DNA of 64,000 nt from Octopus vulgaris (taxonomy: Eukaryota). Below, piece after piece: positions 7,696 to 35,378 of the stretch. Every line of letters starts with the position of its first letter. Positions within the stretch are counted from its first letter, which is position 1. The stretch spans positions 53,568,001 through 53,632,000 of the forward strand of contig OX597833.1 in assembly GCA_951406725.2 (NCBI GenBank). Reading direction: 5' to 3'. Under the pieces are notes generated by a model, which worked only from the letters and a program-made list of their open reading frames with translations, was not told the origin of the DNA and ran no database searches. The translations under genes were made by a program, and so were the position numbers.

Positions 7696-7978
7696 TATAT
7701 AATCTTTTGCTAACAACGGGGTTCTCTCTCCATGTGAGGTTATATTTTTGTTGCATGTGTATGAAGTGCAATGTTGCATGGTAGTGAGATGCGAGCACTG
7801 AATGCAAAGGATGTGCAAAGGTTAGAGAGAAATGAAGTAAGCATGCTTTACAGGACATATAATGTTAGTCTGCATGAACAGTGTGGTACAGATGAGCTGA
7901 GAGATAGACTAGGTGTAAGAAGAATCATCTGCAGTGTGTAAGAATGAAGATTATGTTGGTGCAGACTTTTGATGTATA

Positions 7979-8494
7979 TCGTAAATCCTCGAGTATAGTC
8001 CGCCCTTGTGTATAATACGCAGGGGATTTTTAGGGGGCTTTACCTCTGAAAAACCTAAACCTTGTGTATAATACGCACCCCTTCTCTCACTTGAGTTGTG
8101 TGTAATTAAGCCAGCAGCACCTAGTTGAACAAACACTTCCGCGCATGCGTAATACAATAATGGTGATGTTCTTAACTGTTATATGGGAATGTAAATATGT
8201 TTGCAAATTGTTTTTGTTACATGTTATTCTGTGTTCTGAATACTTTTATTTCAATAAATGTTGCTTACTGCAAGTTATGGATGATTCTTTTATGACTTCA
8301 TTGCTTAGCTTAAGGTATTTTCATGCCTGACATCACATAATACGTCTGGATAAACATTGCCGGACAGCAAATAGAGACTTGGACATTGCTTAGGAAATAT
8401 TTTTTCATTTTTAACCTCGTATATAGTATGCACTTGGGATTTTGACCTTTAAATTTTGGGGAAAACATGCGGATTATACTCAAGGATTATATGG
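7979..8494. mobile_element. Tc1/pogo-like MITE
   Basis: TA-flanked ~25-bp TIRs (CGTAAATCCTCGAGTATAGTCCGC / GCGGATTATACTCAAGGATTATATGG); orphan right TIR of the same family at 13206-13232. Confidence 0.8.
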
Positions 8495-8819
8495 TATGGA
8501 GGACAACAGATGGTTAAAGAAGAGCCAGGACAGTTGAGTGGAAGGAATCTGCAGAAGAGGAAGACCAAGGAAGACATGGGTAGGAGTGGCAAAAGTTGAT
8601 CTTAGAATGTTAAAACTCATGCAAAAGAAGACAAAAATGTTGCAATAAATGGTGAAATGCTGTGTTGGAAAAGAGCTGTCCAACCCATGCAAGCAATGAC
8701 AAATGGTCATAAAAATGACACTGATGATGATGATGATATATATGAGAGTGCAGAAAAATATAGAAATCATCATCATCATCATCTTCATCACCATTGTCGT
8801 TGTCATCATTTCAATGTCC

Positions 8820-11131: not shown

Positions 11132-11932
11132 GTCATGTTTGATAAAAAATAACTTATTCACCAATGTTTTAACATCATCTCCTTCAAAATAGTCGAGTTG
11201 TGCAACAGTACACCAGTCCTAGCGTTGCTGCCACTTTTGGAATCCGGCCTGGAAGTCGTTTTCTGTAAGTGGGTCAAGGACGTTCTGTGATTCACTCTGG
11301 ATCTCAGCAATGGTGTTAAAACAGTGACCTTTGAGCTGCATTTTCATCTTGGGGAAGAGATGGAAGTCTGCAGGTGTTAAATCTGGTGAATAGAGCAGGT
11401 GCAGAAGTGATACCGTGTTGTTTTTGGCAAGAAAATTGAGTGAGGAGAGCTCAGTGAAGAATCCACTTCTTTGCATTCTACAGATCCAGTCGCTTTCGCT
11501 AAATGTCATCAGAGGCTTCAAAATATCACAGTAGAACTCTTGGTTGACAGTCTGGTCATCTTTTTGATTGAGCTGCAGTTCTCTCATGTCTTCTGAAGCA
11601 CCCGTGCCACTCGAAACATTGCATACAACCCATTGCCTCCTTGCCATAAGCCTGCCATAAATTGCCAAAGCATGCACAACGCAACCGACGCCCTGGAGCA
11701 GGAGTGAAGAACAGCTCTTTCGAGAGGTTACACTTTCCACTTATGATGCTGTGAGCAAGAATGAGATCACCACGGCGTCGTCGTTTTTCTAGAGAATAGA
11801 GGTCGAGCGTCTTCAGCTTGGCAGAAGGTGAACACTAAAGGGTTAAAGGTTAATTCTAGAAAACATTGTGTGCAGTGTTCGGACTATCAAATTTATTCAG
11901 GTAAACACATCCATATTCTGAATTTTACTTAA

Positions 11933-12330
11933 CCCCTAACCCAACAATTATTTTGAAAATAAATGCATTTTTTCAGACATATTTTTTATTGTTTTATTTT
12001 ACTATGTTTTGAATGGTGATTTCGAGGTAAATTTCAAACCTTATTTATTATTCATAAAATGTGCCTGCCAACCCTTCGACTGTCTCCAGGTGACTAAATC
12101 ATACTTGGTCTTCAATGCCTTACTCAAGCGAAAGGTGGCAGAAATCGTCACTGCCAGACGTATAAAGTGAGCGAATATACTCGTATATGTCAAAAAAGAG
12201 TTTATAATAGACAAAGGAACTCGTTTGCTGTCGATTTTGGCAAGTCTATCTTTTGACGAGTTAACTCGCCAGAGATAGAAAAAAACGATTTCGGTCAAAA
12301 CGCATATATTCGTTTCTGCCAGGTAAGGGG
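11933..12330. mobile_element. piggyBac-like MITE (family 3)
   Basis: TTAA|CCCCTAACC ... GGTAAGGGG|TTAA; the paralogous empty site at 18127-18130 has a single TTAA. Confidence 0.85.
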
Positions 12331-12639
12331 TTAATAAAACTGATATAAATTTTATGCAAAATTTCATGTTAGTTCTTTCTTCCTGTCCATGACAAAAATC
12401 ATAAAGTGAGCGAATATACTCGTATATGTCAAAAAAGAGTTTATAATAGACAAAGGAACTCGTTTGCTGTCGATTTTGGCAAGTCTATCTTTTGACGAGT
12501 TAACTCGCCAGAGATAGAAAAAAACGATTTCGGTCAAAACGCATATATTCGTTTCTGCCAGGTAAGGGGTTAATAAAACTGATATAAATTTTATGCAAAA
12601 TTTCATGTTAGTTCTTTCTTCCTGTCCATGACAAAAACC
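12162..12639. repeat. 239-bp near-perfect tandem duplication
   Basis: 12162-12400 repeated at 12401-12639; unit covers MITE right end plus mariner N-terminal remnant. Confidence 0.95.
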
Positions 12640-12687
12640 ATAGACTACAGCTTGTGTGTAATCACAAAAAAAACAAAACAAATTTCA

Positions 12688-13071
12688 ATAATAAATCTCT
12701 GAACGAGGTATAAACAGTAACTGCACTGTTACTGTTTATACCTCGTTCAGAGATTCATTATTGCTTGTATACACTTTTTCGAGATCAGTGACATAGAGTT
12801 ACTGGAAAAAGTATAATATCATCTGCGTTGGGAACTTCTTTTCATCGAAAACCGGTGATTGTCGCACGCCGATGACGGGTCAAGACCCAGAAACTGCAGT
12901 CCGTGCGTATCACTTAGGTTGACGAGGGAAGGACGACCTCCCTTTGCAAATACCATAAGGGCACAGAAAGTGTGCCTAAAGCCAGCTTGGAGACGATGTT
13001 CTCCTGGGGCTACAAGCTACAGTAACACCCACCCTTAGTGGTTAGCCGTATTGAGATGGCAAGTATACCTC
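12688..13071 (+). mobile_element. 384-bp Penelope-like pLTR/retrozyme-type insertion
   Basis: 15-bp direct repeat ACAAAACAAATTTCA at 12673-12687 and 13072-13086; 5' fold-back; internal hammerhead fold; no ORF. Confidence 0.7.
12855..12913 (+). ncRNA. Minimal type-I hammerhead ribozyme candidate (two core deviations)
   Basis: Stem I CGCACG/CGTGCG, core CCGATGA, stem II GGGTC-AA-GACCC, GAAA, palindromic stem III ACTGCAGT, GUC cleavage triplet ending at 12901. Confidence 0.7.
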
Positions 13072-13467
13072 ACAAAACAAATTTCACACAACTTGCAAAG
13101 TAAACACAGCAATGTCACTCAGCACACAGCCTCATGAAAGTCACTGCTAGCTCTCACTGCACATGCAACAGTGTGCTGCCATCTGTCGGTGCGCTACAGA
13201 AAAATGCGGATTATACTCGAGGATTTACGGTAGTTAATTATGTGATGAAACCCATTCCATGATTTCATGTATGTATCAGTGTTGATACTAGGAAATGTTA
13301 ACGAGTGTGAAACACCATAAGATACAGAAATAATGAAATAAATGACTAGTCATGTGATGTATGATGTCACAAGATTGCTTGTTATCTGCCAAGTGACTTT
13401 ACAAGATTTGGTGGTGGTGGTGGTAGTGGTAGTGGTGATTTATTAGTAATGATTTCTGCTTATCATG

Positions 13468-14180
13468 GCCTCCATGCCGGTGGCACGTAAAAAGCACCAT
13501 CCGATCGTGGACGTTGCCAGCCTTGCCTAGCCTCCATGCTGGTGGCACGTAAAAAGCACCATCCGATCGTGGCTGTTTGCCAGCCTTGCCTAGCCTCCGT
13601 GCTGGTGGCACGTAAAAAGCACCATCCGATCGTGGCCGTTGCCAGCCTTGCCTAGCCTCCGTGCTGGTGGCACGTAAAAAGCACCATCCGATCGTGGCCG
13701 TTGCCAGCCTCGCCTAGCCTCCGTGCTGGTGGCACGTAAAAAGCACCATCCGATCGTGGCCGTTGCCAGCCTCGCCTAGCCTCCGTGCTGGTGGCACGTA
13801 AAAAGCACCATCCGATCGTGGCCGTTGCCAGCCTCGCCTAGCCTCCGTGCTGGTGGCACGTAAAAAGCACCATCCGATCTTGGCCGTTGCCAGCCTCGCC
13901 TAGCCTCCATGCTGGTAGCACGTAAAAAGCACCATCCGATTGTGGCCGTTGTCAGCCTCGCCTAGCCTCTGTGCTGGTGGCACATAAAAAGCACCATCCG
14001 ATCGTGGCCGTTGCCAGCCTCGCCTAGCCTCTGTGCTGGTGGCACATAAAAAGCACCATCCGATCGTGGCCGTTACCAGCCTTGCCTAGCCTCCGTGCTG
14101 GTGGCACGTAAAAAGCACCATCCGATCGTGGCCGTTGCCAGCCTTGCCTAGCCTCCGTGCTGGTGGCATGTAAAAAGCAC
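13468..14180 (+). repeat. 62-bp minisatellite, 11 full units plus a partial unit, within an RTE 3' UTR
   Basis: GCCTCCGTGCTGGTGGCACGTAAAAAGCACCATCCGATCGTGGCCGTTGCCAGCCTCGCCTA repeated; runs into the RTE tail ending (GAT)n at ~14318. Confidence 0.95.
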
Positions 14181-14489
14181 CCACTACACTCATGGAGTGG
14201 TTGGTGTTAGGAAGGGCATCCAGCTGTAGAAACATTGCCAGATCAGACTGGGCCTGGTGCAGCCTTCTGGTTTCCCAGATCCCAGCATGGAAAGCGGACG
14301 CTAAACGATGATGATGATGTGATAGACATTAGCTCTGATCTGATGTGTTTGGATAGAGGTAACACATATGGAACAAGGGAACAAGAATTAAGAAAAGGCA
14401 CTACAATTAACACTGGATGTAGTATTAAACTCCAGGAATGGTACAAAGAAATACAACCTCTGTTTAAAGAAAAATTTCAACAAAAACAT

Positions 14490-16720: not shown

Positions 16721-17645
16721 CCCTTTAGCATTTAAACTGGGCATATCTGGCCAAAAGTATTCTGCCTGTTTTATGTTCAAACTGGCCAGATCTGGTCTCT
16801 CACACCAACCCTACAATATCATTTTAAAAATTAATAGCTACCTTATCAAAATCTCATAGCTACAAGATAATGCATGATTAGTTCAAAACAATGTGGATAA
16901 AAAAGGATTAAGTTAAGTTAAGTTAAGTTAATTTTTTGGCTCAAAAAGCAAAAAGCAAGGCCATGTAGGAGGACATGGAGTTATGTACAGGGAGGGTGTT
17001 CATGCAAAGAATTCAAGCAATTTCTGGTCAAGAGACACCTTCGAGCGGTTGTCGGCATCTTCACTATCTCGTCCGGCAGCTTATTCCACGGATCCGCAAC
17101 CTGGACGGAGAAAGCCCCTCTCCTTCGATTGAGATGAAATCCGTCGCAGATGGAGCTTTTCGGAGTGACCCCGCAGCCGACGCCCTGGAGCAGGAGTGAA
17201 GAACAGCTCTTTCGAGAGGTTACACTTTCCACTTATGATGTTGTGAGCAAGAATGAGATCACCACGGCGTCGTCGTTTTTCTAGAGAATAAAGGTCGAGC
17301 GTCTTCAGCCTTTCTTCATAAGACAAATGCTTGAGACCAAGAACCATGCGGGTAGCCAGCTTCTGGACTCTTTCGAGATGATGTATGTCTTTGAGGAGAT
17401 AAGGAGAAGAGGCTTGAATCCCGCACTCCAATATGGATCTCACCAGCGTGACGTAGAGCAGTAGGAATATGGCTGCTGTGAGCATTCTGAATGACCGTCG
17501 AATCAAAAACAGAACTCCGCGTGCTTTGTTGGCAGCATGGACGTACTGGGCCGAGCAAGAATGATATCACCACGGCGGCGTCGTTTTTCTAGAGAATAGA
17601 GGTCGAGCGTCTTCAGCTTGGCAGAATAATGCGAACACTAAAGGG
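16721..17645. mobile_element. piggyBac-like MITE (family 1) interrupted by a CR1 LINE
   Basis: TTAA|CCCTTTAG at 16717 and CTAAAGGG|TTAA at 17645; MITE sequence resumes at 17618. Confidence 0.85.
16908..17617 (-). mobile_element. CR1-clade LINE 3' fragment
   Basis: ORF 17081-17506: LYVTLVRSILE...LERVQKLATRM...SYEERLKTLDLYSLEKRRRRGDLI, then WNKLP after a frameshift; (TAACT)n tail. Confidence 0.9.
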
Positions 17646-17689
17646 TTAAAGGTTAATTCTAGAAAACATTACGTGCAGTGTTCGGACTA

Positions 17690-18092
17690 CTCTTTTTCTC
17701 TTTTTACTTGTTTCAGTCATTTGACTGCGGCCATGCTGGAGCACTGCCTTTAGTCGAGCAAATCGACCCCAGGACTTATTCTTTGTAAGCCCAGTACTTA
17801 TTCTATCGGTCTCTTTTGCCGAACCGCTAAGTTACGGGGACGTAAACACACCAGCATCGGTTGTCAAGCAATGCTAGGGGAACAAACACAGACACACAAA
17901 CATATTCACACACACTTATATATATATATACATATATACGACAGGCCTCTTTCAGTTTCCGTCTACGAAATCCACTCACAAGGCATTGGTCGGCCCGGGG
18001 CTATAGCAGAAGACACGTGCCCAAGATGCCACGCAGTGGGACTGAACCCGGAACCATGTGGTTGGTTAGCAAGCTACTTACCAAACAGCCAC
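17690..18092 (-). mobile_element. SINE family A
   Basis: Reverse copy; absent from the paralogous site near 11886. Confidence 0.9.
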
Positions 18093-29248: not shown

Positions 29249-32200
29249 TCATGATTCTCGGAGAATTTGGAGACCAACTCTTACGTATTCCACATATTGA
29301 AAAATACTGCTTTGCAATGAGATGTATTTACATCTAGTGTGCAGGAGATCAATAAAGTCTTTGCAATTTTCTTTCTGAATTTCAGCCTGTTCCCAGTAAT
29401 TGTGAGTCTTCACAATATAATCTAATATTTCTATGTAGTTCTGTGTGATGGAATGAATTCTTTTAGGAATAGTAACAGTCTGTGACGAGGAGGGCAGAGC
29501 CGAGCCCGTAAGGCTCGAAGAGTTTGGGTTGGAGGAAGAAGAGGATGAAGTAGAGTTGTTAGAGATGTGGGAGGAGGAGGAGTGTGATGTCGCTGAGACA
29601 GCGTTTGACGATGAAGCTGAAGGCGTTAGTCTTGCATCCGAGGCGTTACTTCCCTGTGAACGTATTGAGTCAATGCTGCCTGATGGTGAAGGGGTCGATC
29701 GTGATGAAGGCGTGGAAGTGTTCCAGTTGGGCCGATGCGGGGATGGGGTGTGAGATGGCAAGGAAGTGGTGCTGGTCTGCTTGTTGTATTCGTCGATGGC
29801 CTGCTTGAGGTTGTCGGCGACCTTTTTCTTCATGTCGTAGAGCTTTTTGCAGACGCGGGACATCAACAGCAAGCGCAACAGCGAGATTTTCTGTTCGTGA
29901 GGGTACTGGTGGTAGTGTCCGATTTGATTGAGGAAATCGAAAATCTCACCAAACATGCGGAAACATCGCTGTTCTTGGTCTTTCTCTAACGCTATACCGC
30001 ACTGTACGTAGGACACTACGGCGTTCATATACAAGAAAGATTTCTCAAAGATGTCGGTTAATTTGTTTCCTTCGTGTTTCATACGTTTGGCTTCTTGGAA
30101 AAAGTGGTCAGCAGCCTTGTCTTTCCCTTTATGGCTGCTGCTGCCACCTTCACTGCCGCCGTGGTGGTTAGAACCACTGCTCTTGTATAACGGCCGGTTA
30201 CGTAGGCTATTTGAACTGTTGCTGTGGCTAGGGGTGACTGGGATTGTACTAATAGCAGAAGTCGAGGGCTGGTGGTGGTCAGATGTGTTGCTCGACGTCG
30301 ACCCCTTCGGAGACAACAAGGTAGAAGAGGAGTTAGACTGCCTCGACGGAGACGGTGTCGCAACCGACTTCCCAGTGTCTTTGGAATTATCCGATGAGCT
30401 TTTTGATGTCAAATTTGCCTGGGTCGCTGTCTTGAGTTTTTTGCTGCTGGACGAGTTCGTTAAAGCATTGACGGTCTGATTATTACCATTACTGTTGTTA
30501 TGCTTCTTAACATTATCGTTATCGACACGGTCGTTGTGATCGCTGTCATCACGCTCACTATCACTGTCGCTGTCATCACCATTGTCGTCGATATCGTCAT
30601 CACCGTTGTTGTTGATGTTGCTGTTGTTGTTATTGCTATTACTACTACTAGTACTACAACCACTGCTATTACATTCAGATGGAGACACAGGTTGCATAAC
30701 ACTGTCCTTCTCTTTGTCATGGCATGGTTGTTTGGCATCGTCTATGGAAGAAGAAATCTGTTTGTCTTTATCGGAAACTCTGGTTTTGCTGGTAGCAGTT
30801 GAAGACTCAGTCGAAGGAGAGCTGTGGTTATGGTCGCTGTTGACCAAAGACAAACTTTTCACAGATTCATTCTTGGGAATAGTTGGCAACAGGTTGTCTT
30901 CGTTCTTTGAAATTTGTCCCTCGGTTTTGATCATTTTCGGACTGGGTCGACTGATGTCGTAGCTCTCAGAGTCGAGAGTTCTCTTTGGGATCCGGAATTT
31001 GAAATCAGATTTTTCTGTTTTGCAAGGTGTACTCTCAGTCAGCACAGGTGTCGTTGTAGTCTGCGTCATGACAAAACTTTCGGAGTTCGCATTGGGTTCA
31101 CTTGCTTTAACTGAAGGAGAAACATTACCGTTCTGCATTTCAGGCTTGACTGCAGCTTCCTCGACGCTGTTTTCTGTTTTAACCTCTTGTAATAACGGCA
31201 GGTCTTTTAAGCATTTTGCAGGGATGAAATGCAGAAGATCTGTATTGATTTTGATGGTCAAAGTGCGTTTTTGGCAACAATTAGATTCAGTATTATTTGG
31301 TGTTCTTGGACTTTTGTCTCGCTTTATCCAGGGTTGCTTGTTTTCAGACTGTTTCTCAACAGACTCTTGGGACTGTATTTTACTTGACCACGTGTTCGGG
31401 ACTGTTTCAGATTTGATGGTATCCAAGTGCTCGGCGGGCTGGGACGGTTCATTTGTGAGTTTGCGGCGTTTAACATTTGGAATGGAGGACAGCAAATTGG
31501 TATTAATACAAATGGGAAGTGAAATTTTACGCTTCAGTTTTCTATGAACTAATAATGTAGGTGATGCAGACATCGGGGAAGATACAGGAGACGGAAACTC
31601 TTGGATGTCTTTGCCGGGAGGCCACGTCGAGAGATTTGTCACAGATTTAGTGTTGGCCTGCAAACTGTTTTCCTTTGATGAGATGTCCTCAGTAAATGAT
31701 GGGGCACTGGGAACATCTTGTTTGTGGCAGCTACTAGGTGGTTCTTCGTTATCACTTGGTATTAATGATGTTTTCTCCTCTGCAGATGACTTTTCACTGT
31801 TGCTGTCGTCATCGGATTCACAATGACTGTTCGCTTCAGTGATTGGACTGCTGTTCTCATTGCAGCTGCTGCTACCACTACTGCTACTACTACTACCGCT
31901 ACTACTACTGCTGCTGCTGCTATTATTTCTGCTTCTTTGGCTTGCACTGACATTACTTCCAGTATGGCTAGAGACGGATACAATTTCCTCGGCTTCCTTG
32001 GGGACATGATTCGCTTTGTTGCCACTGTTTGGCAACGAAAAGAATGCTCGGAGACACCAGCGCGGTGTTTTTTGAACACTTGCAGAATCGCACTGTTCCG
32101 CATCATTGACCGCGTCCACTGAGTCGAGCTGCTTTGAATGATCGTCTTTATCTTCGTCTTCCTCCTCTTCGTCGTTATCGTCGTCGTCATCCGATGCACT

Positions 32201-34987
32201 AGATGCTTTTTCCGAGACGTTTGACTCATCGTCAGAGGTGTCCGAGTCACTAGTTGAACTTGAAGAGACCACATCCGGTTTCTGATGCTTGACCGCTGGG
32301 CCTATTCTATCCAGCTCGTTGCTTTCTTCAACATCACTTTGATCATCATCTTCGTCATCATCTCCATCCTCCTCCTCTTCGTCGTCAGCATCATTATCAT
32401 TTTTCTTAGCAAACTGGCCCGATCCTTTCCTAGCTGGTGTTGAGTAAACTAACGGTGTGTTATTACAGACAGTATTAGATTCTGTCACTGCTGAGTTGTT
32501 GACAGTCAATGTACTGGACTTTGTTTTACCTACAACTCCATCGCTCTCAGAATCACTTTCACTTGTCGGATGTTCACTGAAAATATCAAAGCCTACTGAC
32601 TCCTTTCTGGTTTCCACTGCACCGATATCCATGGAATGATGTAGGCGTGAGATAGGACTGGACGGTGATGACTTTGAGGGAGTAAACACGGGGGGGAATT
32701 CTTTGGTAGACTCGAGTGCTTCACTGTCTGAATCACTCATCTGAAGATCTTGGGAAAGATCTTCTTGACTCTGTAAGGAACATTTCACAGCATTTAAGGG
32801 GAAGACAGGCATAGCTGTTGGAGAAGTTGATTCAAGTGGACTTGTCTTTAATGGTTGGTTCTCGCCTACAGAATCTGTGTTTTGATGGTTTTTAATTTCT
32901 GCAGCAGCCAGGGTCATGTGTTTAGATTCTTTGAGGATGCTGGCATCTGCTTGGTTATTGGTGTTCTCATCAGATGAACAACTGTGGACTGGTTTATCAT
33001 TAGGGGGTTGTGTTGCATCCTCTTCATTATCAAAGGAATCACTGTCACTGTCAGAGAGCCCAAAAGTCTTTTGGGAAGGTGAATGGGAATTCTTGAAAGA
33101 CCGAGCGAATGGATTTTCTGACATTTTCTCCGGTGTAGAAATGGCCGTTACTGGAGACTCGGGACAGGTCATCTCAGCTAAGATTTTATCCAGGTCATTT
33201 TTCTCTTCTTTGAGATCAGACAGCACTGGCGATGCGTTTAAATTCTGCTTTTGGTAACGGTGGTGAGTTAAAGATGGTGAAATAGCTTTTAACTTTGTTT
33301 GATGTACAGGTGTTGAAGGTTTCTGATGTTTTAATTCGGACAGCAGATGTTTCTGGCTTTGCCCCATCGGTGAAAGGAAGCGGCTCTCCTCAAACAGGTT
33401 TTCTTTCACACTCGGTGTTTTTATACCCGTTATTTTCTCTGGCTGACACATTTCTTTCATAATTTTCTCAATCTGTAGGGGCGGGTTATCTGATTCGCTG
33501 TCATCAAGATCACTGGAGACTTTTGCTGGATTTGAGCCGATAATTTTGACCTTTAGAGAGTTTGATAAGCCTTTGTTCAGATGTGTCGGCATGAATGGTT
33601 TGCTTGAAACGGTATTCGTTGCAATGTATGCAGGTGACAATGATGATGGCAACGAGGTGTGGTGGTTCTCTCGAGAACCATCCATATTGAGAGAAGGAGG
33701 GGGCGGTGTGGAAGCAATAGCAGAAGGTGCTGCTGGTCCCTTTGATGGCTGTTGTAGTTGAAGGTGAGGCTGTTGTTGTTGAGACTGTAATAATGGGGGA
33801 CCCTGTTGTTGAGACTGTACACTGGGTGTTAGAGAGGGCATAGGGGATCTTGACTTGGTTTTGGTCAAATGATGTGAAATTCCTTTCTCAGCAGAATATG
33901 ACTTCTCCCTACCACTGTTATTGGAGAGGCTTTTCTCACTGGTATCAACATTACTAGAAAGTTCTTTGCTTTCATTGTGTGTCTTATCACTATACTGTTT
34001 GTGGTCAGCATGGGCCTTGTCAGCACTACTATGAAACTTGTCCACTTGCAAAGATTTCTCACCCCCAGAATGGTACTTGTCACGATAATATTTCTCACTA
34101 TTACTGCCATGTGATGAGCTTTTGTCACTTAAAGAAGATAGGGGCCGATTGGGTTTCAAGTGTGCATTGCCAGAGTTGGTAGTTACATTAGGATAAGGGG
34201 GGTGCTTACTGAGTTGTGTGGATGATGACGAGGAGGACGAAGAGTATACTTTGTTATTGGGGTTGGTGAAAGAATTTTGTGAAGAATATGAGTGTTTTTT
34301 AGGATGGAAGTCCTTGTCAGGTCCATGCTTCTCGGACAACATTCTTGATGAAGTAGACAATCGAGAATTCTGAGAGGTCCGGCTTCGATAGTTGTTGTCT
34401 ATCGAGTTTTGTCCGTGACCACCGTCTTTCGACATTGAATGAGAGTTCTGAGAATTACGACTATAAGCACCGTCTGGAGGTGTTTCAAGGAGTCCTTGTC
34501 TAGAACCATCCTGGTGCCCATGGCCATGGCCAAGGTAGGAAGCAGAACTATTACCACTGCCATTGTTGCTTCCGCTGCAACGCCCGTGACTAGATGCATC
34601 TTGACCCCGAGGGGTATCATCTTTCCCTATCATCCCCTTGGAACTAGCCTGAGGACGCATTTTGTAGCCATTACATCGCAATTTCGAAGTTTTGGCTTGG
34701 TGGTTGGTGTCTCTTGCAGAGCGGGTCTGTTTGTCAATGCCGATCATGTGACCTGGTTGCTTGGACATTTCTTCGACGACCTCGTCGTAGTTTCCAAGTA
34801 CTTTGCTGATAGTCTGGTGCATAACAGAATGGTTTTTAGGGTTGGAAGAAACACGTACAGGCTCGCTGAACAGCATTGTGTTGGTTTTAGGGGTCGGTGC
34901 GGTTCGTGATTGGATCGCCTGCATGACTTGGGCCTCCCTGGCTTTCTTAGCTTCTTCTTTCATTAATTCTTTATTATAACTGATCAT
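29249..34987 (-). CDS. lilli: AF4/FMR2 family protein (AFF/lilliputian), super elongation complex scaffold, 1912 aa, single-exon CDS
   Basis: N-terminal LFSEPVRV and ISKVLGNYDEV (cf. AFF4 LFAEPYKV / IQSMLGNYDEM); ALF-like motifs EKIMKEM..ITGIKTP and DKILAEM..VTAISTP; LSQDLQMSDSD; AF9-binding-like ICINTNLLSSIP; C-terminal homology domain ADHFFQEAKRMKH...YWEQAE; ACCATG start with an in-frame TGA two codons upstream. Confidence 0.93.
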   Translation of the reverse strand: MISYNKELMKEEAKKAREAQVMQAIQSRTAPTPKTNTMLFSEPVRVSSNPKNHSVMHQTISKVLGNYDEVVEEMSKQPGHMIGIDKQTRSARDTNHQAKTSKLRCNGYKMRPQASSKGMIGKDDTPRGQDASSHGRCSGSNNGSGNSSASYLGHGHGHQDGSRQGLLETPPDGAYSRNSQNSHSMSKDGGHGQNSIDNNYRSRTSQNSRLSTSSRMLSEKHGPDKDFHPKKHSYSSQNSFTNPNNKVYSSSSSSSSTQLSKHPPYPNVTTNSGNAHLKPNRPLSSLSDKSSSHGSNSEKYYRDKYHSGGEKSLQVDKFHSSADKAHADHKQYSDKTHNESKELSSNVDTSEKSLSNNSGREKSYSAEKGISHHLTKTKSRSPMPSLTPSVQSQQQGPPLLQSQQQQPHLQLQQPSKGPAAPSAIASTPPPPSLNMDGSRENHHTSLPSSLSPAYIATNTVSSKPFMPTHLNKGLSNSLKVKIIGSNPAKVSSDLDDSESDNPPLQIEKIMKEMCQPEKITGIKTPSVKENLFEESRFLSPMGQSQKHLLSELKHQKPSTPVHQTKLKAISPSLTHHRYQKQNLNASPVLSDLKEEKNDLDKILAEMTCPESPVTAISTPEKMSENPFARSFKNSHSPSQKTFGLSDSDSDSFDNEEDATQPPNDKPVHSCSSDENTNNQADASILKESKHMTLAAAEIKNHQNTDSVGENQPLKTSPLESTSPTAMPVFPLNAVKCSLQSQEDLSQDLQMSDSDSEALESTKEFPPVFTPSKSSPSSPISRLHHSMDIGAVETRKESVGFDIFSEHPTSESDSESDGVVGKTKSSTLTVNNSAVTESNTVCNNTPLVYSTPARKGSGQFAKKNDNDADDEEEEDGDDDEDDDQSDVEESNELDRIGPAVKHQKPDVVSSSSTSDSDTSDDESNVSEKASSASDDDDDNDEEEEDEDKDDHSKQLDSVDAVNDAEQCDSASVQKTPRWCLRAFFSLPNSGNKANHVPKEAEEIVSVSSHTGSNVSASQRSRNNSSSSSSSSGSSSSSSGSSSCNENSSPITEANSHCESDDDSNSEKSSAEEKTSLIPSDNEEPPSSCHKQDVPSAPSFTEDISSKENSLQANTKSVTNLSTWPPGKDIQEFPSPVSSPMSASPTLLVHRKLKRKISLPICINTNLLSSIPNVKRRKLTNEPSQPAEHLDTIKSETVPNTWSSKIQSQESVEKQSENKQPWIKRDKSPRTPNNTESNCCQKRTLTIKINTDLLHFIPAKCLKDLPLLQEVKTENSVEEAAVKPEMQNGNVSPSVKASEPNANSESFVMTQTTTTPVLTESTPCKTEKSDFKFRIPKRTLDSESYDISRPSPKMIKTEGQISKNEDNLLPTIPKNESVKSLSLVNSDHNHSSPSTESSTATSKTRVSDKDKQISSSIDDAKQPCHDKEKDSVMQPVSPSECNSSGCSTSSSNSNNNNSNINNNGDDDIDDNGDDSDSDSERDDSDHNDRVDNDNVKKHNNSNGNNQTVNALTNSSSSKKLKTATQANLTSKSSSDNSKDTGKSVATPSPSRQSNSSSTLLSPKGSTSSNTSDHHQPSTSAISTIPVTPSHSNSSNSLRNRPLYKSSGSNHHGGSEGGSSSHKGKDKAADHFFQEAKRMKHEGNKLTDIFEKSFLYMNAVVSYVQCGIALEKDQEQRCFRMFGEIFDFLNQIGHYHQYPHEQKISLLRLLLMSRVCKKLYDMKKKVADNLKQAIDEYNKQTSTTSLPSHTPSPHRPNWNTSTPSSRSTPSPSGSIDSIRSQGSNASDARLTPSASSSNAVSATSHSSSSHISNNSTSSSSSSNPNSSSLTGSALPSSSQTVTIPKRIHSITQNYIEILDYIVKTHNYWEQAEIQKENCKDFIDLLHTRCKYISLQSSIFQYVEYVRVGLQILRES

Positions 34988-35378
34988 GGTTCAGCTGATG
35001 GTGATAACTACGGCGTACCAATATTACGGTAGTTTCCAGAATGAACAAAACAATTCAGTGACTGATGTGTATGGATTTTGCTTATGTTATTCTTTTCTGT
35101 TTTCAAGAGTGTGCATAGATATAAACAACAATTTTTTGTATATGTGGTTACAGGATTGAAAACTCGATCTGAGAATAGGTCATTGTATTGTGAACATGTG
35201 TGTGCATGCATGCATGTATGTATGTGTGTGTGTGTGTGGTGGGGAGGGGAATGTTCGTTAAACAATGGAAAAAATAATCAGATAAAAAAACTTGGTGACT
35301 GGTCGTGTGTTCCACAAAACATTGTGAAAGGACCCAGAATCCGGCACTGGTGATGCTACTATCACCCAAATGACTTAC

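Follow-up and report, generated by a model that had tools for sequence, protein, structure and literature searches.

A non-coding insertion in a mariner remnant

The analysed stretch of Octopus vulgaris DNA (64,000 nucleotides, referred to as the window) holds a 384-base insertion flanked by a perfect 15-bp direct repeat at 12673-12687 and 13072-13086, exactly where the original prediction had placed it. At the left end two letters, and at the right end three, can be assigned to either the insertion or its target, so that the strict target-site duplication measures 10-15 bp. The predicted location inside a mariner remnant was also borne out, as the flanks belong to a multicopy repeat and the frame at 11222-11740 of the minus strand weakly matches the Mos1 transposase (E 0.007); a further minus-strand frame, 12364-12684, we take to resemble the mariner N-terminal region. 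The host element and the insertion comprise the following features:

11219..11740, minus strand: broken mariner transposase frame of the host element, with the weak Mos1 match (E 0.007)
12673..12687, plus strand: left copy of the target-site duplication; last 2 nt common to the inverted arm, motif present once in empty mariner
12686..12726, minus strand: inverted 41-nt copy of the family's 3' 'tail', indicated by opposite-strand joints and a loose end behind 12726
12728..13071, plus strand: direct copy, 344 nt of the ~357-nt unit, indicated by joints and a loose end; the next 3 nt are common to the right duplication
12728..12763, plus strand: tail within the direct copy, forming the right fold-back arm; 12728-12735 predicted to pair with 13019-13026
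13072..13086, plus strand: right copy of the target-site duplication, an exact repeat
13087..13201, minus strand: host mariner 5' leader, indicated by contig joints and loose ends; it resumes left of the insertion to about 12580

Part of the element was found in 20 of 24 listed runs, labelled as four organisms, and contigs of four runs (X1, X2, X3 and X11) were aligned at 80% likeness; the tables used below hold the best 15 of 95 joints, 24 of 1298 loose ends and 32 of 22791 pieces. X1, X2 and X3 have single-locus joints in common and are therefore close kin, not independent samples, and X11, which is RNA by guess only, was used for sequence variants only. The best run contains 0.47 of 40 sampled words, none reaching half, and none of the best 32 of 22791 pieces spans the present locus. 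Empty mariner copies in the contigs of the four runs hold the duplicated motif once, which disposes of the possibility, raised in the original prediction, that both 15-mers already belonged to the empty element; these sites are paralogous, resembling the present target without being identical to it. Nine of the best 15 of 95 joints skip from 12635-12669 to 13087-13166, and a loose end before 13087, among the best 24 of 1298, occurs in 112, 159, 136 and 16 contigs across the four runs.

The segment lacks an ORF, as had been claimed: its longest stop-to-stop frames are 65 and 59 codons, a Pfam search of the insertion frames gave nothing at its cut-off, and neither the frame list nor Pfam revealed the RT plus GIY-YIG ORF by which an autonomous Penelope-like element is recognised. 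The open-frame list of the 64-kb window likewise contains no recognised RT/GIY-YIG ORF, the Pfam scan covering part of the frames. An open frame of about 30 codons, read by hand from the ATG at 13056 over the unit junction, was too short to count. The insertion has no long direct terminal repeat (LTR), and no second copy of the element was found within the window, in which partial matches elsewhere carry three mismatches and are part of another repeat.

Inverted tail and head-to-tail unit

The long fold-back anticipated at the start of the segment has arms of 36 nt (12686-12721 and 12728-12763) that are 97% complementary and 6 nt apart. Folding of the whole segment gave z -8.6 relative to shuffles and z -3.4 once the left arm was removed; most of the fold excess comes from the fold-back, and the remainder is still structured. 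The insertion is laid out as the 41-nt inverted tail copy, one extra base and the 344-nt direct copy, and since the inverted arm has five family bases (12722-12726) that are missing from the direct copy, the two arms were templated separately.

Three of the best 15 of 95 joints connect opposite strands (12719>13072, 12722>13068 and 12726>13074), and the loose end behind 12726 (X2, 103 contigs; X11, 9) has letters that correspond, by eye, to the reverse of the element's 3' end. Other copies continue beyond the 3' end at 13071, via eight more letters, into the arm sequence, and contigs of all four runs bridge the tail and the hammerhead described below with no ORF between. These joints and contigs together establish a head-to-tail unit of about 357 nt, a length calculated manually from the joint and loose-end positions. 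Head-to-tail links are thus seen at both junctions; the locus itself is one unit, and no contig with two hammerheads occurs among the best 32 of 22791 pieces. On the unit, the two outer ends of the insertion lie about 46-49 nt apart.

Other insertions combine an inverted tail with a shorter direct copy, as indicated by three same-strand joints among the best 15 of 95 (12709>12843, 12714>12844 and 12725>12843, with short sides of 22, 33 and 22 letters) and by four further such pairs among the 12 rows of a second joint table, where orientation is not printed. The direct copy resumes at 12839-12844, about 10-15 nt before the hammerhead, in four of the seven displayed joints with an inverted tail; stops or starts may be favoured at this site, or the divergence of the preceding stretch may have affected the alignment. 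The pairing of inverted tail and direct copy appears to be the inverted-repeat/tail signature of Penelope, and the earlier Penelope or retrozyme reading fits both this fold-back and the multicopy family.

It is very unlikely that the element is instead a SINE-like passenger of RTE or another LINE, its inversion the product of ordinary twin priming. The 5' truncation and 10-15 bp duplication seen here would agree with such an origin, both being general to target-primed retrotransposition. SINEs also form 11.7% of the O. vulgaris assembly (PMC13282606). Against a SINE stand the head-to-tail unit and the two outer ends, both of which are 3'-side unit ends at two different internal sites, and also the lack of a poly(A) or simple-repeat tail on the insertion and of a tRNA gene in the 64-kb window.

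Predicted hammerhead and other structures

A relaxed type I hammerhead descriptor gave one match over both strands of the 64-kb window, with its core from 12869; it matched 1 of 5000 shuffles of the element, and stems as long were found in 0 of 5000. The predicted ribozyme is built as follows, all on the plus strand:

12854..12914, plus strand: type I hammerhead (descriptor match), predicted cut after 12901
12854-59/12909-14, plus strand: outer helix I, 6 pairs
12863-68/12902-07, plus strand: helix I, 6 pairs, separated from the outer helix by a small internal loop
12869-75, plus strand: core, C4 variant
12876-89, plus strand: helix II, C-A at its base
12890-93, plus strand: GAAA
12893-12900, plus strand: helix III, a perfect 8-nt palindrome

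The hammerhead fold of the original prediction stands as a descriptor match, with two core deviations that it had left unstated: position 4 of the present copy is C in place of U (U4C), and helix II opens at its base with a C12876-A12889 mismatch (10.1/11.1). The minimum-energy fold retains stem I and loses the catalytic core. Rfam reported no hammerhead up to E 10, and its matches on the segment were hairpin-type chance matches below the gathering score. According to the available parts of the sources, U4C lowers hammerhead activity in vitro and is tolerated in vivo in a viroid (as cited in Perreault 2011, PMC3088659), and a natural mismatch at the helix II base, U-U, occurs in the axolotl HHR_Amex2 (PMC7229834). 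Unlike in the viroid, U4C here distinguishes a subfamily within an animal genomic repeat and is joined by a second deviation. The helix III palindrome could form an 8-bp duplex (computed at -11.1 kcal/mol), and the hammerhead would cleave slowly, chiefly as a dimer through this palindrome. Folded as a circle, the 344-nt slice gave z -3.7 with 59% of its bases paired, against 61% in shuffles, so that it is not more paired. A hammerhead-core pattern was also run against metagenomes, where the seven loci found had stem I in no case and were set aside as chance; the tail motif had no match in metagenome and viral contigs.

Further hairpins are predicted around the hammerhead:

12770..12815, plus strand: predicted hairpin after the tail, with family differences 12793, 12794 and 12796 in its loop
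12925..12943, plus strand: predicted hairpin, one mismatch in the present copy
12959..12977, plus strand: predicted hairpin, from base-pair probabilities
12989..13060, plus strand: 3' domain with predicted hairpins 12989-13004 and 13045-13060 and the greatest family depth

The two hairpins originally proposed fared differently. That at 12960-12976 is well supported, with a pair probability of 0.96-1.0 in six of seven scored pairs and 0.54 for the outer G-T, whereas that at 12925-12943 is mismatched here and reaches a pair probability of at most 0.41; A12930G mends the mismatch in 38-92% of depth. Similar GA-rich five-letter loops (12793-12797, 12932-12936 and 12966-12970, in family majority letters) cap three of the hairpins and are possibly protein-binding sites in repeated form.

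Hammerhead variation across the family

The canonical U4 is restored by C12870T in 91, 44, 22 and 24% of depth in X1, X2, X3 and X11, respectively, where the 91% in X1 may reflect partial reading (76% of the run). C4 accordingly holds 9-78% of depth by run and is a subfamily trait, beyond the present copy alone. C12865T (92, 54, 21 and 26% of depth in the same runs) tracks C12870T and G12864A (9, 46, 79 and 77%) follows the opposite trend, which points to two subfamilies, with phase inferred from these parallel and mirrored shares. The hammerhead of the C4 subfamily is likely to be the weaker one. G12884T, present in 86-95% of depth, yields a normal loop.

Covariation in the stems, the absence of which the original prediction had considered, is suggestive. 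G12877A and C12888T fall in one helix II pair. In each of the four runs T is the commoner of the two changes, consistent with G-C, G-U and A-U pairs; on the other side, the best 40 of 83 variant rows contain no partner changes for G12864A and G12927A. No changes at 12876 or 12889 occur among the same best 40 of 83 rows.

These data bear on a further alternative, in which the locus is a fold-back DNA transposon, a MITE or a local inverted duplication with an incidental hammerhead. The long near-perfect hairpin speaks for it, as do the two core deviations and an Rfam result limited to hairpin-type chance matches. It is contradicted by the insert's lack of terminal inverted repeats, by the five extra family bases of the inverted arm, which was thus not copied from the direct arm, and by a descriptor that matches 1 of 5000 shuffles in a family with canonical U4 in 22-91% of depth. 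We regard this origin as largely refuted and scarcely credible.

Family size and truncation

The family is multicopy, contrary to the single-copy segment that would have spoken against the original prediction. Summed relative to single-contig depth at 13017-13039 is about 25,000, 39,000 and 30,000 in X1, X2 and X3, suggesting 25,000-39,000 copies of the 3' part as a rough figure, since summed contig depth is not copy number and indicates the order of magnitude only. By the same measure the tail reaches 15,000, 21,000 and 15,000 in the three runs and the sequence just beyond it 1,000-2,000, the tail bin being 10.5-15.8 times deeper than the next unit bin. Depth dips further, to about 45-70 copies, at 12810-12832, where the present copy diverges most from the family, and between the hammerhead and the 3' end it increases, though irregularly, in the manner of 5'-truncated retrocopies. 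Family size is roughly 10^4 copies.

Such a profile could also arise if the family were the pseudo-LTR (pLTR) of a full-length autonomous Penelope-like element, most copies being 5'-truncated stumps and the present one descended from a copy in which an uncommon internal deletion had brought tail and hammerhead end together; there would then be no independent retrozyme life cycle. The depth that falls 10-16 times past the tail and the ~45-70 copies at 12810-12832 agree with this account, and solo pLTRs and dispersed single hammerheads of truncated Penelopes are described as common in the accessible parts of PMC4209133 and PMC3846280. The tail-to-hammerhead contigs argue against it: they occur in all four runs with 18-22 differences in 127-162 nt, and the short unit is therefore not private to the present locus. 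Depth is moreover similar on either side of the dip (in X2, 88k at 12764-86 and 37k-114k at 12833-78), the best 24 of 1298 loose ends include none that passes from the dip into unrelated sequence, and the sizes of helices I and II are those of canonical retrozyme hammerheads, not the 7-8 bp helix II of the minimal hammerheads of Penelope (PMC4209133, in part). On balance we consider a pseudo-LTR origin unlikely.

Proposed copying by Penelope-like machinery

The insertion is probably a target-duplicating insertion of an abundant non-coding Octopus repeat with a ~357-nt head-to-tail unit that carries the predicted hammerhead, likely copied in trans by a Penelope-like reverse transcriptase/endonuclease. 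Penelope-like elements make up 6.83% of the O. vulgaris assembly, in which 190 Penelope-like families are counted (PMC13282606). In vitro, the Penelope protein of an anole both cleaves and extends the two target strands, favours AT-rich DNA, accepts unprocessed RNA and initiates reverse transcription at two adjacent internal sites, the spacing of which gives the genomic tail (Frangieh 2024, PMC11167929).

We hypothesise that the unit is transcribed as head-to-tail RNA and that a Penelope protein dimer would cut an AT-rich target on both strands, with 10-15 bp between the two cuts. Each target end would then serve as primer for cDNA synthesis at an internal RNA site; the two sites, 13071-13074 and the position equal to 12763, are separated by about 46-49 nt. 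One cDNA would have halted after 41 nt and the other would have run for 344 nt, across the hammerhead cut site, before the two were joined to give the fold-back. Arkhipova 2013 explained junction palindromes by self-priming (PMC3846280, in part), which by analogy may account for the joining step.

Since the long cDNA crosses the cut site, its template would have been uncut or re-ligated at the hammerhead, unless the enzyme jumped. An uncut multimer is the likelier template; a circle is quite possible, with a smaller share of our confidence. The long cDNA lacks about 10-13 nt of a full unit and ends at most 5 nt from the end of the short cDNA, and these ends coincide with the predicted helix 12728-12735/13019-13026. 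Their near-coincidence, seen at one locus, suits a circle, but on a linear multimer the enzyme could be halted at this position by protein sitting on the following unit. The most specific form of the circle reading is that the insertion records one lap of the Penelope reverse transcriptase around a 357-nt RNA circle made by the ribozyme, 344 nt of it through the re-ligated site, with the second cDNA halted within 5 nt of the same spot at the helix closing the initiation domain; we put this forward tentatively, as rather doubtful. If it held, the family would prove at nucleotide level that retrozyme circles are copied by Penelope machinery, and the amplified subfamily would be the one whose C4/C-A hammerhead is tuned to keep circles closed.

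Comparison with retrozymes and Penelope-like elements

Several properties of the element are those by which retrozymes are recognised: a type I hammerhead motif (here with U4C and C-A and without an Rfam match), a non-coding unit in the 150-450 bp range with GC below 50% (about 357 nt, GC 0.46), and a target duplication longer than 4 bp (10-15 bp) with no LTR. As far as the available parts of PMC7229834 and 10.64898/2026.07.22.740005 go, a weak palindromic helix III, many copies and the occurrence of monomers are common to metazoan non-LTR retrozymes and the Octopus family, and mussel retrozymes measure 350-390 bp, close to the Octopus unit. Helix I of 6 bp and helix II of 4 bp also fit non-LTR retrozymes (PMC4209133; PMC7229834, both in part). 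Unlike the metazoan retrozymes described there, however, the Octopus copies look mostly 5'-truncated and dispersed, and the present copy has the C4 core and C-A at helix II. It also has the Penelope inverted tail, which was not found in the accessible portions of PMC7229834 and 10.64898/2026.07.22.740005. Membership among the non-LTR retrozymes, judged on sequence features, is thus likely, though not complete.

Penelope insertions pair an inverted, 5'-truncated copy with a direct copy, as seen here and in the three same-strand joints. The insertion plan described in PMC3846280 and PMC8557442 is an inverted 5' copy with an optional 30-40 bp tail; rotifer insertions show the pLTR inverted, duplications of 8-10 bp and, optionally, a tail of 31 bp. 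Two apparent end points, a short duplication and an AT-rich target are common to the Octopus element and endonuclease-bearing Penelope-like insertions (PMC3846280; PMC8557442; PMC11167929), as is a hammerhead upstream of the end points. The tail is about 46-49 nt here versus 30-40 bp, and the direct copy reaches the tail again, so that the inverted repeat closes into a tight fold-back. The hammerhead is of canonical build, in contrast to the minimal one of Penelope-like elements, and no ORF is present. The Chlamys elements such as MRC1 (PMC8557442, compared by description only) are likewise non-autonomous Penelope-like derivatives with pLTRs and head-to-tail copies; these differ in being green algal and in belonging to a clade without canonical hammerheads.

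The supplement of Craig 2021 includes Octopus Naiad and Hydra families, with a different minimal hammerhead in Hydra-1_oBim (PMC8557442). Eight short element terms gave no matching entry in this Naiad/Hydra supplement: seven had no matches, and a generic 8-letter core had 15, of which the 8 displayed lie in other elements. The words 'hammerhead' and 'ribozyme' are absent from the accessible part of the O. vulgaris repeat paper and supplement (PMC13282606), and the sequence may already be in the O. vulgaris repeat library under another label. A search of the octopus and cephalopod literature on hammerheads, ribozymes and Penelope, with subscription papers mostly outside its reach, gave no report of the present family.

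The Octopus family is therefore likely new and its kind, a Penelope-linked retrozyme, already described. Li, Clavereau and Pollet 2026 argue for a descent of animal retrozymes from Penelope pLTRs (10.64898/2026.07.22.740005), and movement by Penelope has been proposed from co-occurrence and pLTR similarity, the mechanism being left open in the available text of these sources (10.64898/2026.07.22.740005; PMC7229834; PMC7761336), as is the retrozyme partner in reviews (PMC7761336; PMC6765202). The Octopus family, of about 10^4 copies, combines a unit of retrozyme size with the insertion footprint of Penelope, and mapped ends can test the retrozyme-Penelope link and distinguish a circular from a linear template: with a circle as template, direct copies of near-unit length should pile up just short of one lap. 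The natural U4 and C4 subfamilies let one ask how much cleavage such an element needs, and cephalopods are added to the retrozyme hosts as far as our literature search reaches. Apart from these points, the element's biology matches that of a known parasite.

Neighbouring sequence

Other rearrangements mark the host mariner and its surroundings. A perfect 239-bp tandem duplication at 12162-12639 spans the junction of a TTAA-ended element and the mariner N-terminal region and is either a recent duplication or an assembly artefact. At 13201-13232 the usual mariner end is replaced by the terminal repeat of another small element, which matches 7977-8003 and 8463-8496. A short insertion in the remnant at 11753-11886 matches 17192-17309 and 17553-17689, both within 17081-17700; a frame in the latter region, which we assume to resemble a LINE C-terminus, had no match in Pfam. 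A tandem array of 62-bp units at 13452-14190 runs into a repeat end, presumably SINE/RTE, that is found again elsewhere in the window.

Farther downstream, 29249-34990 on the minus strand holds an AF4/FMR2 (lilli/AFF) gene as a single unbroken 1912-aa frame (Pfam AFF4_CHD, E 5.8e-35), which is 92% identical to an Octopus bimaculoides protein (1919 aa) over residues 1600-1912. Because AF4/FMR2 genes usually carry many introns, this single frame may be an old retrocopy in use.
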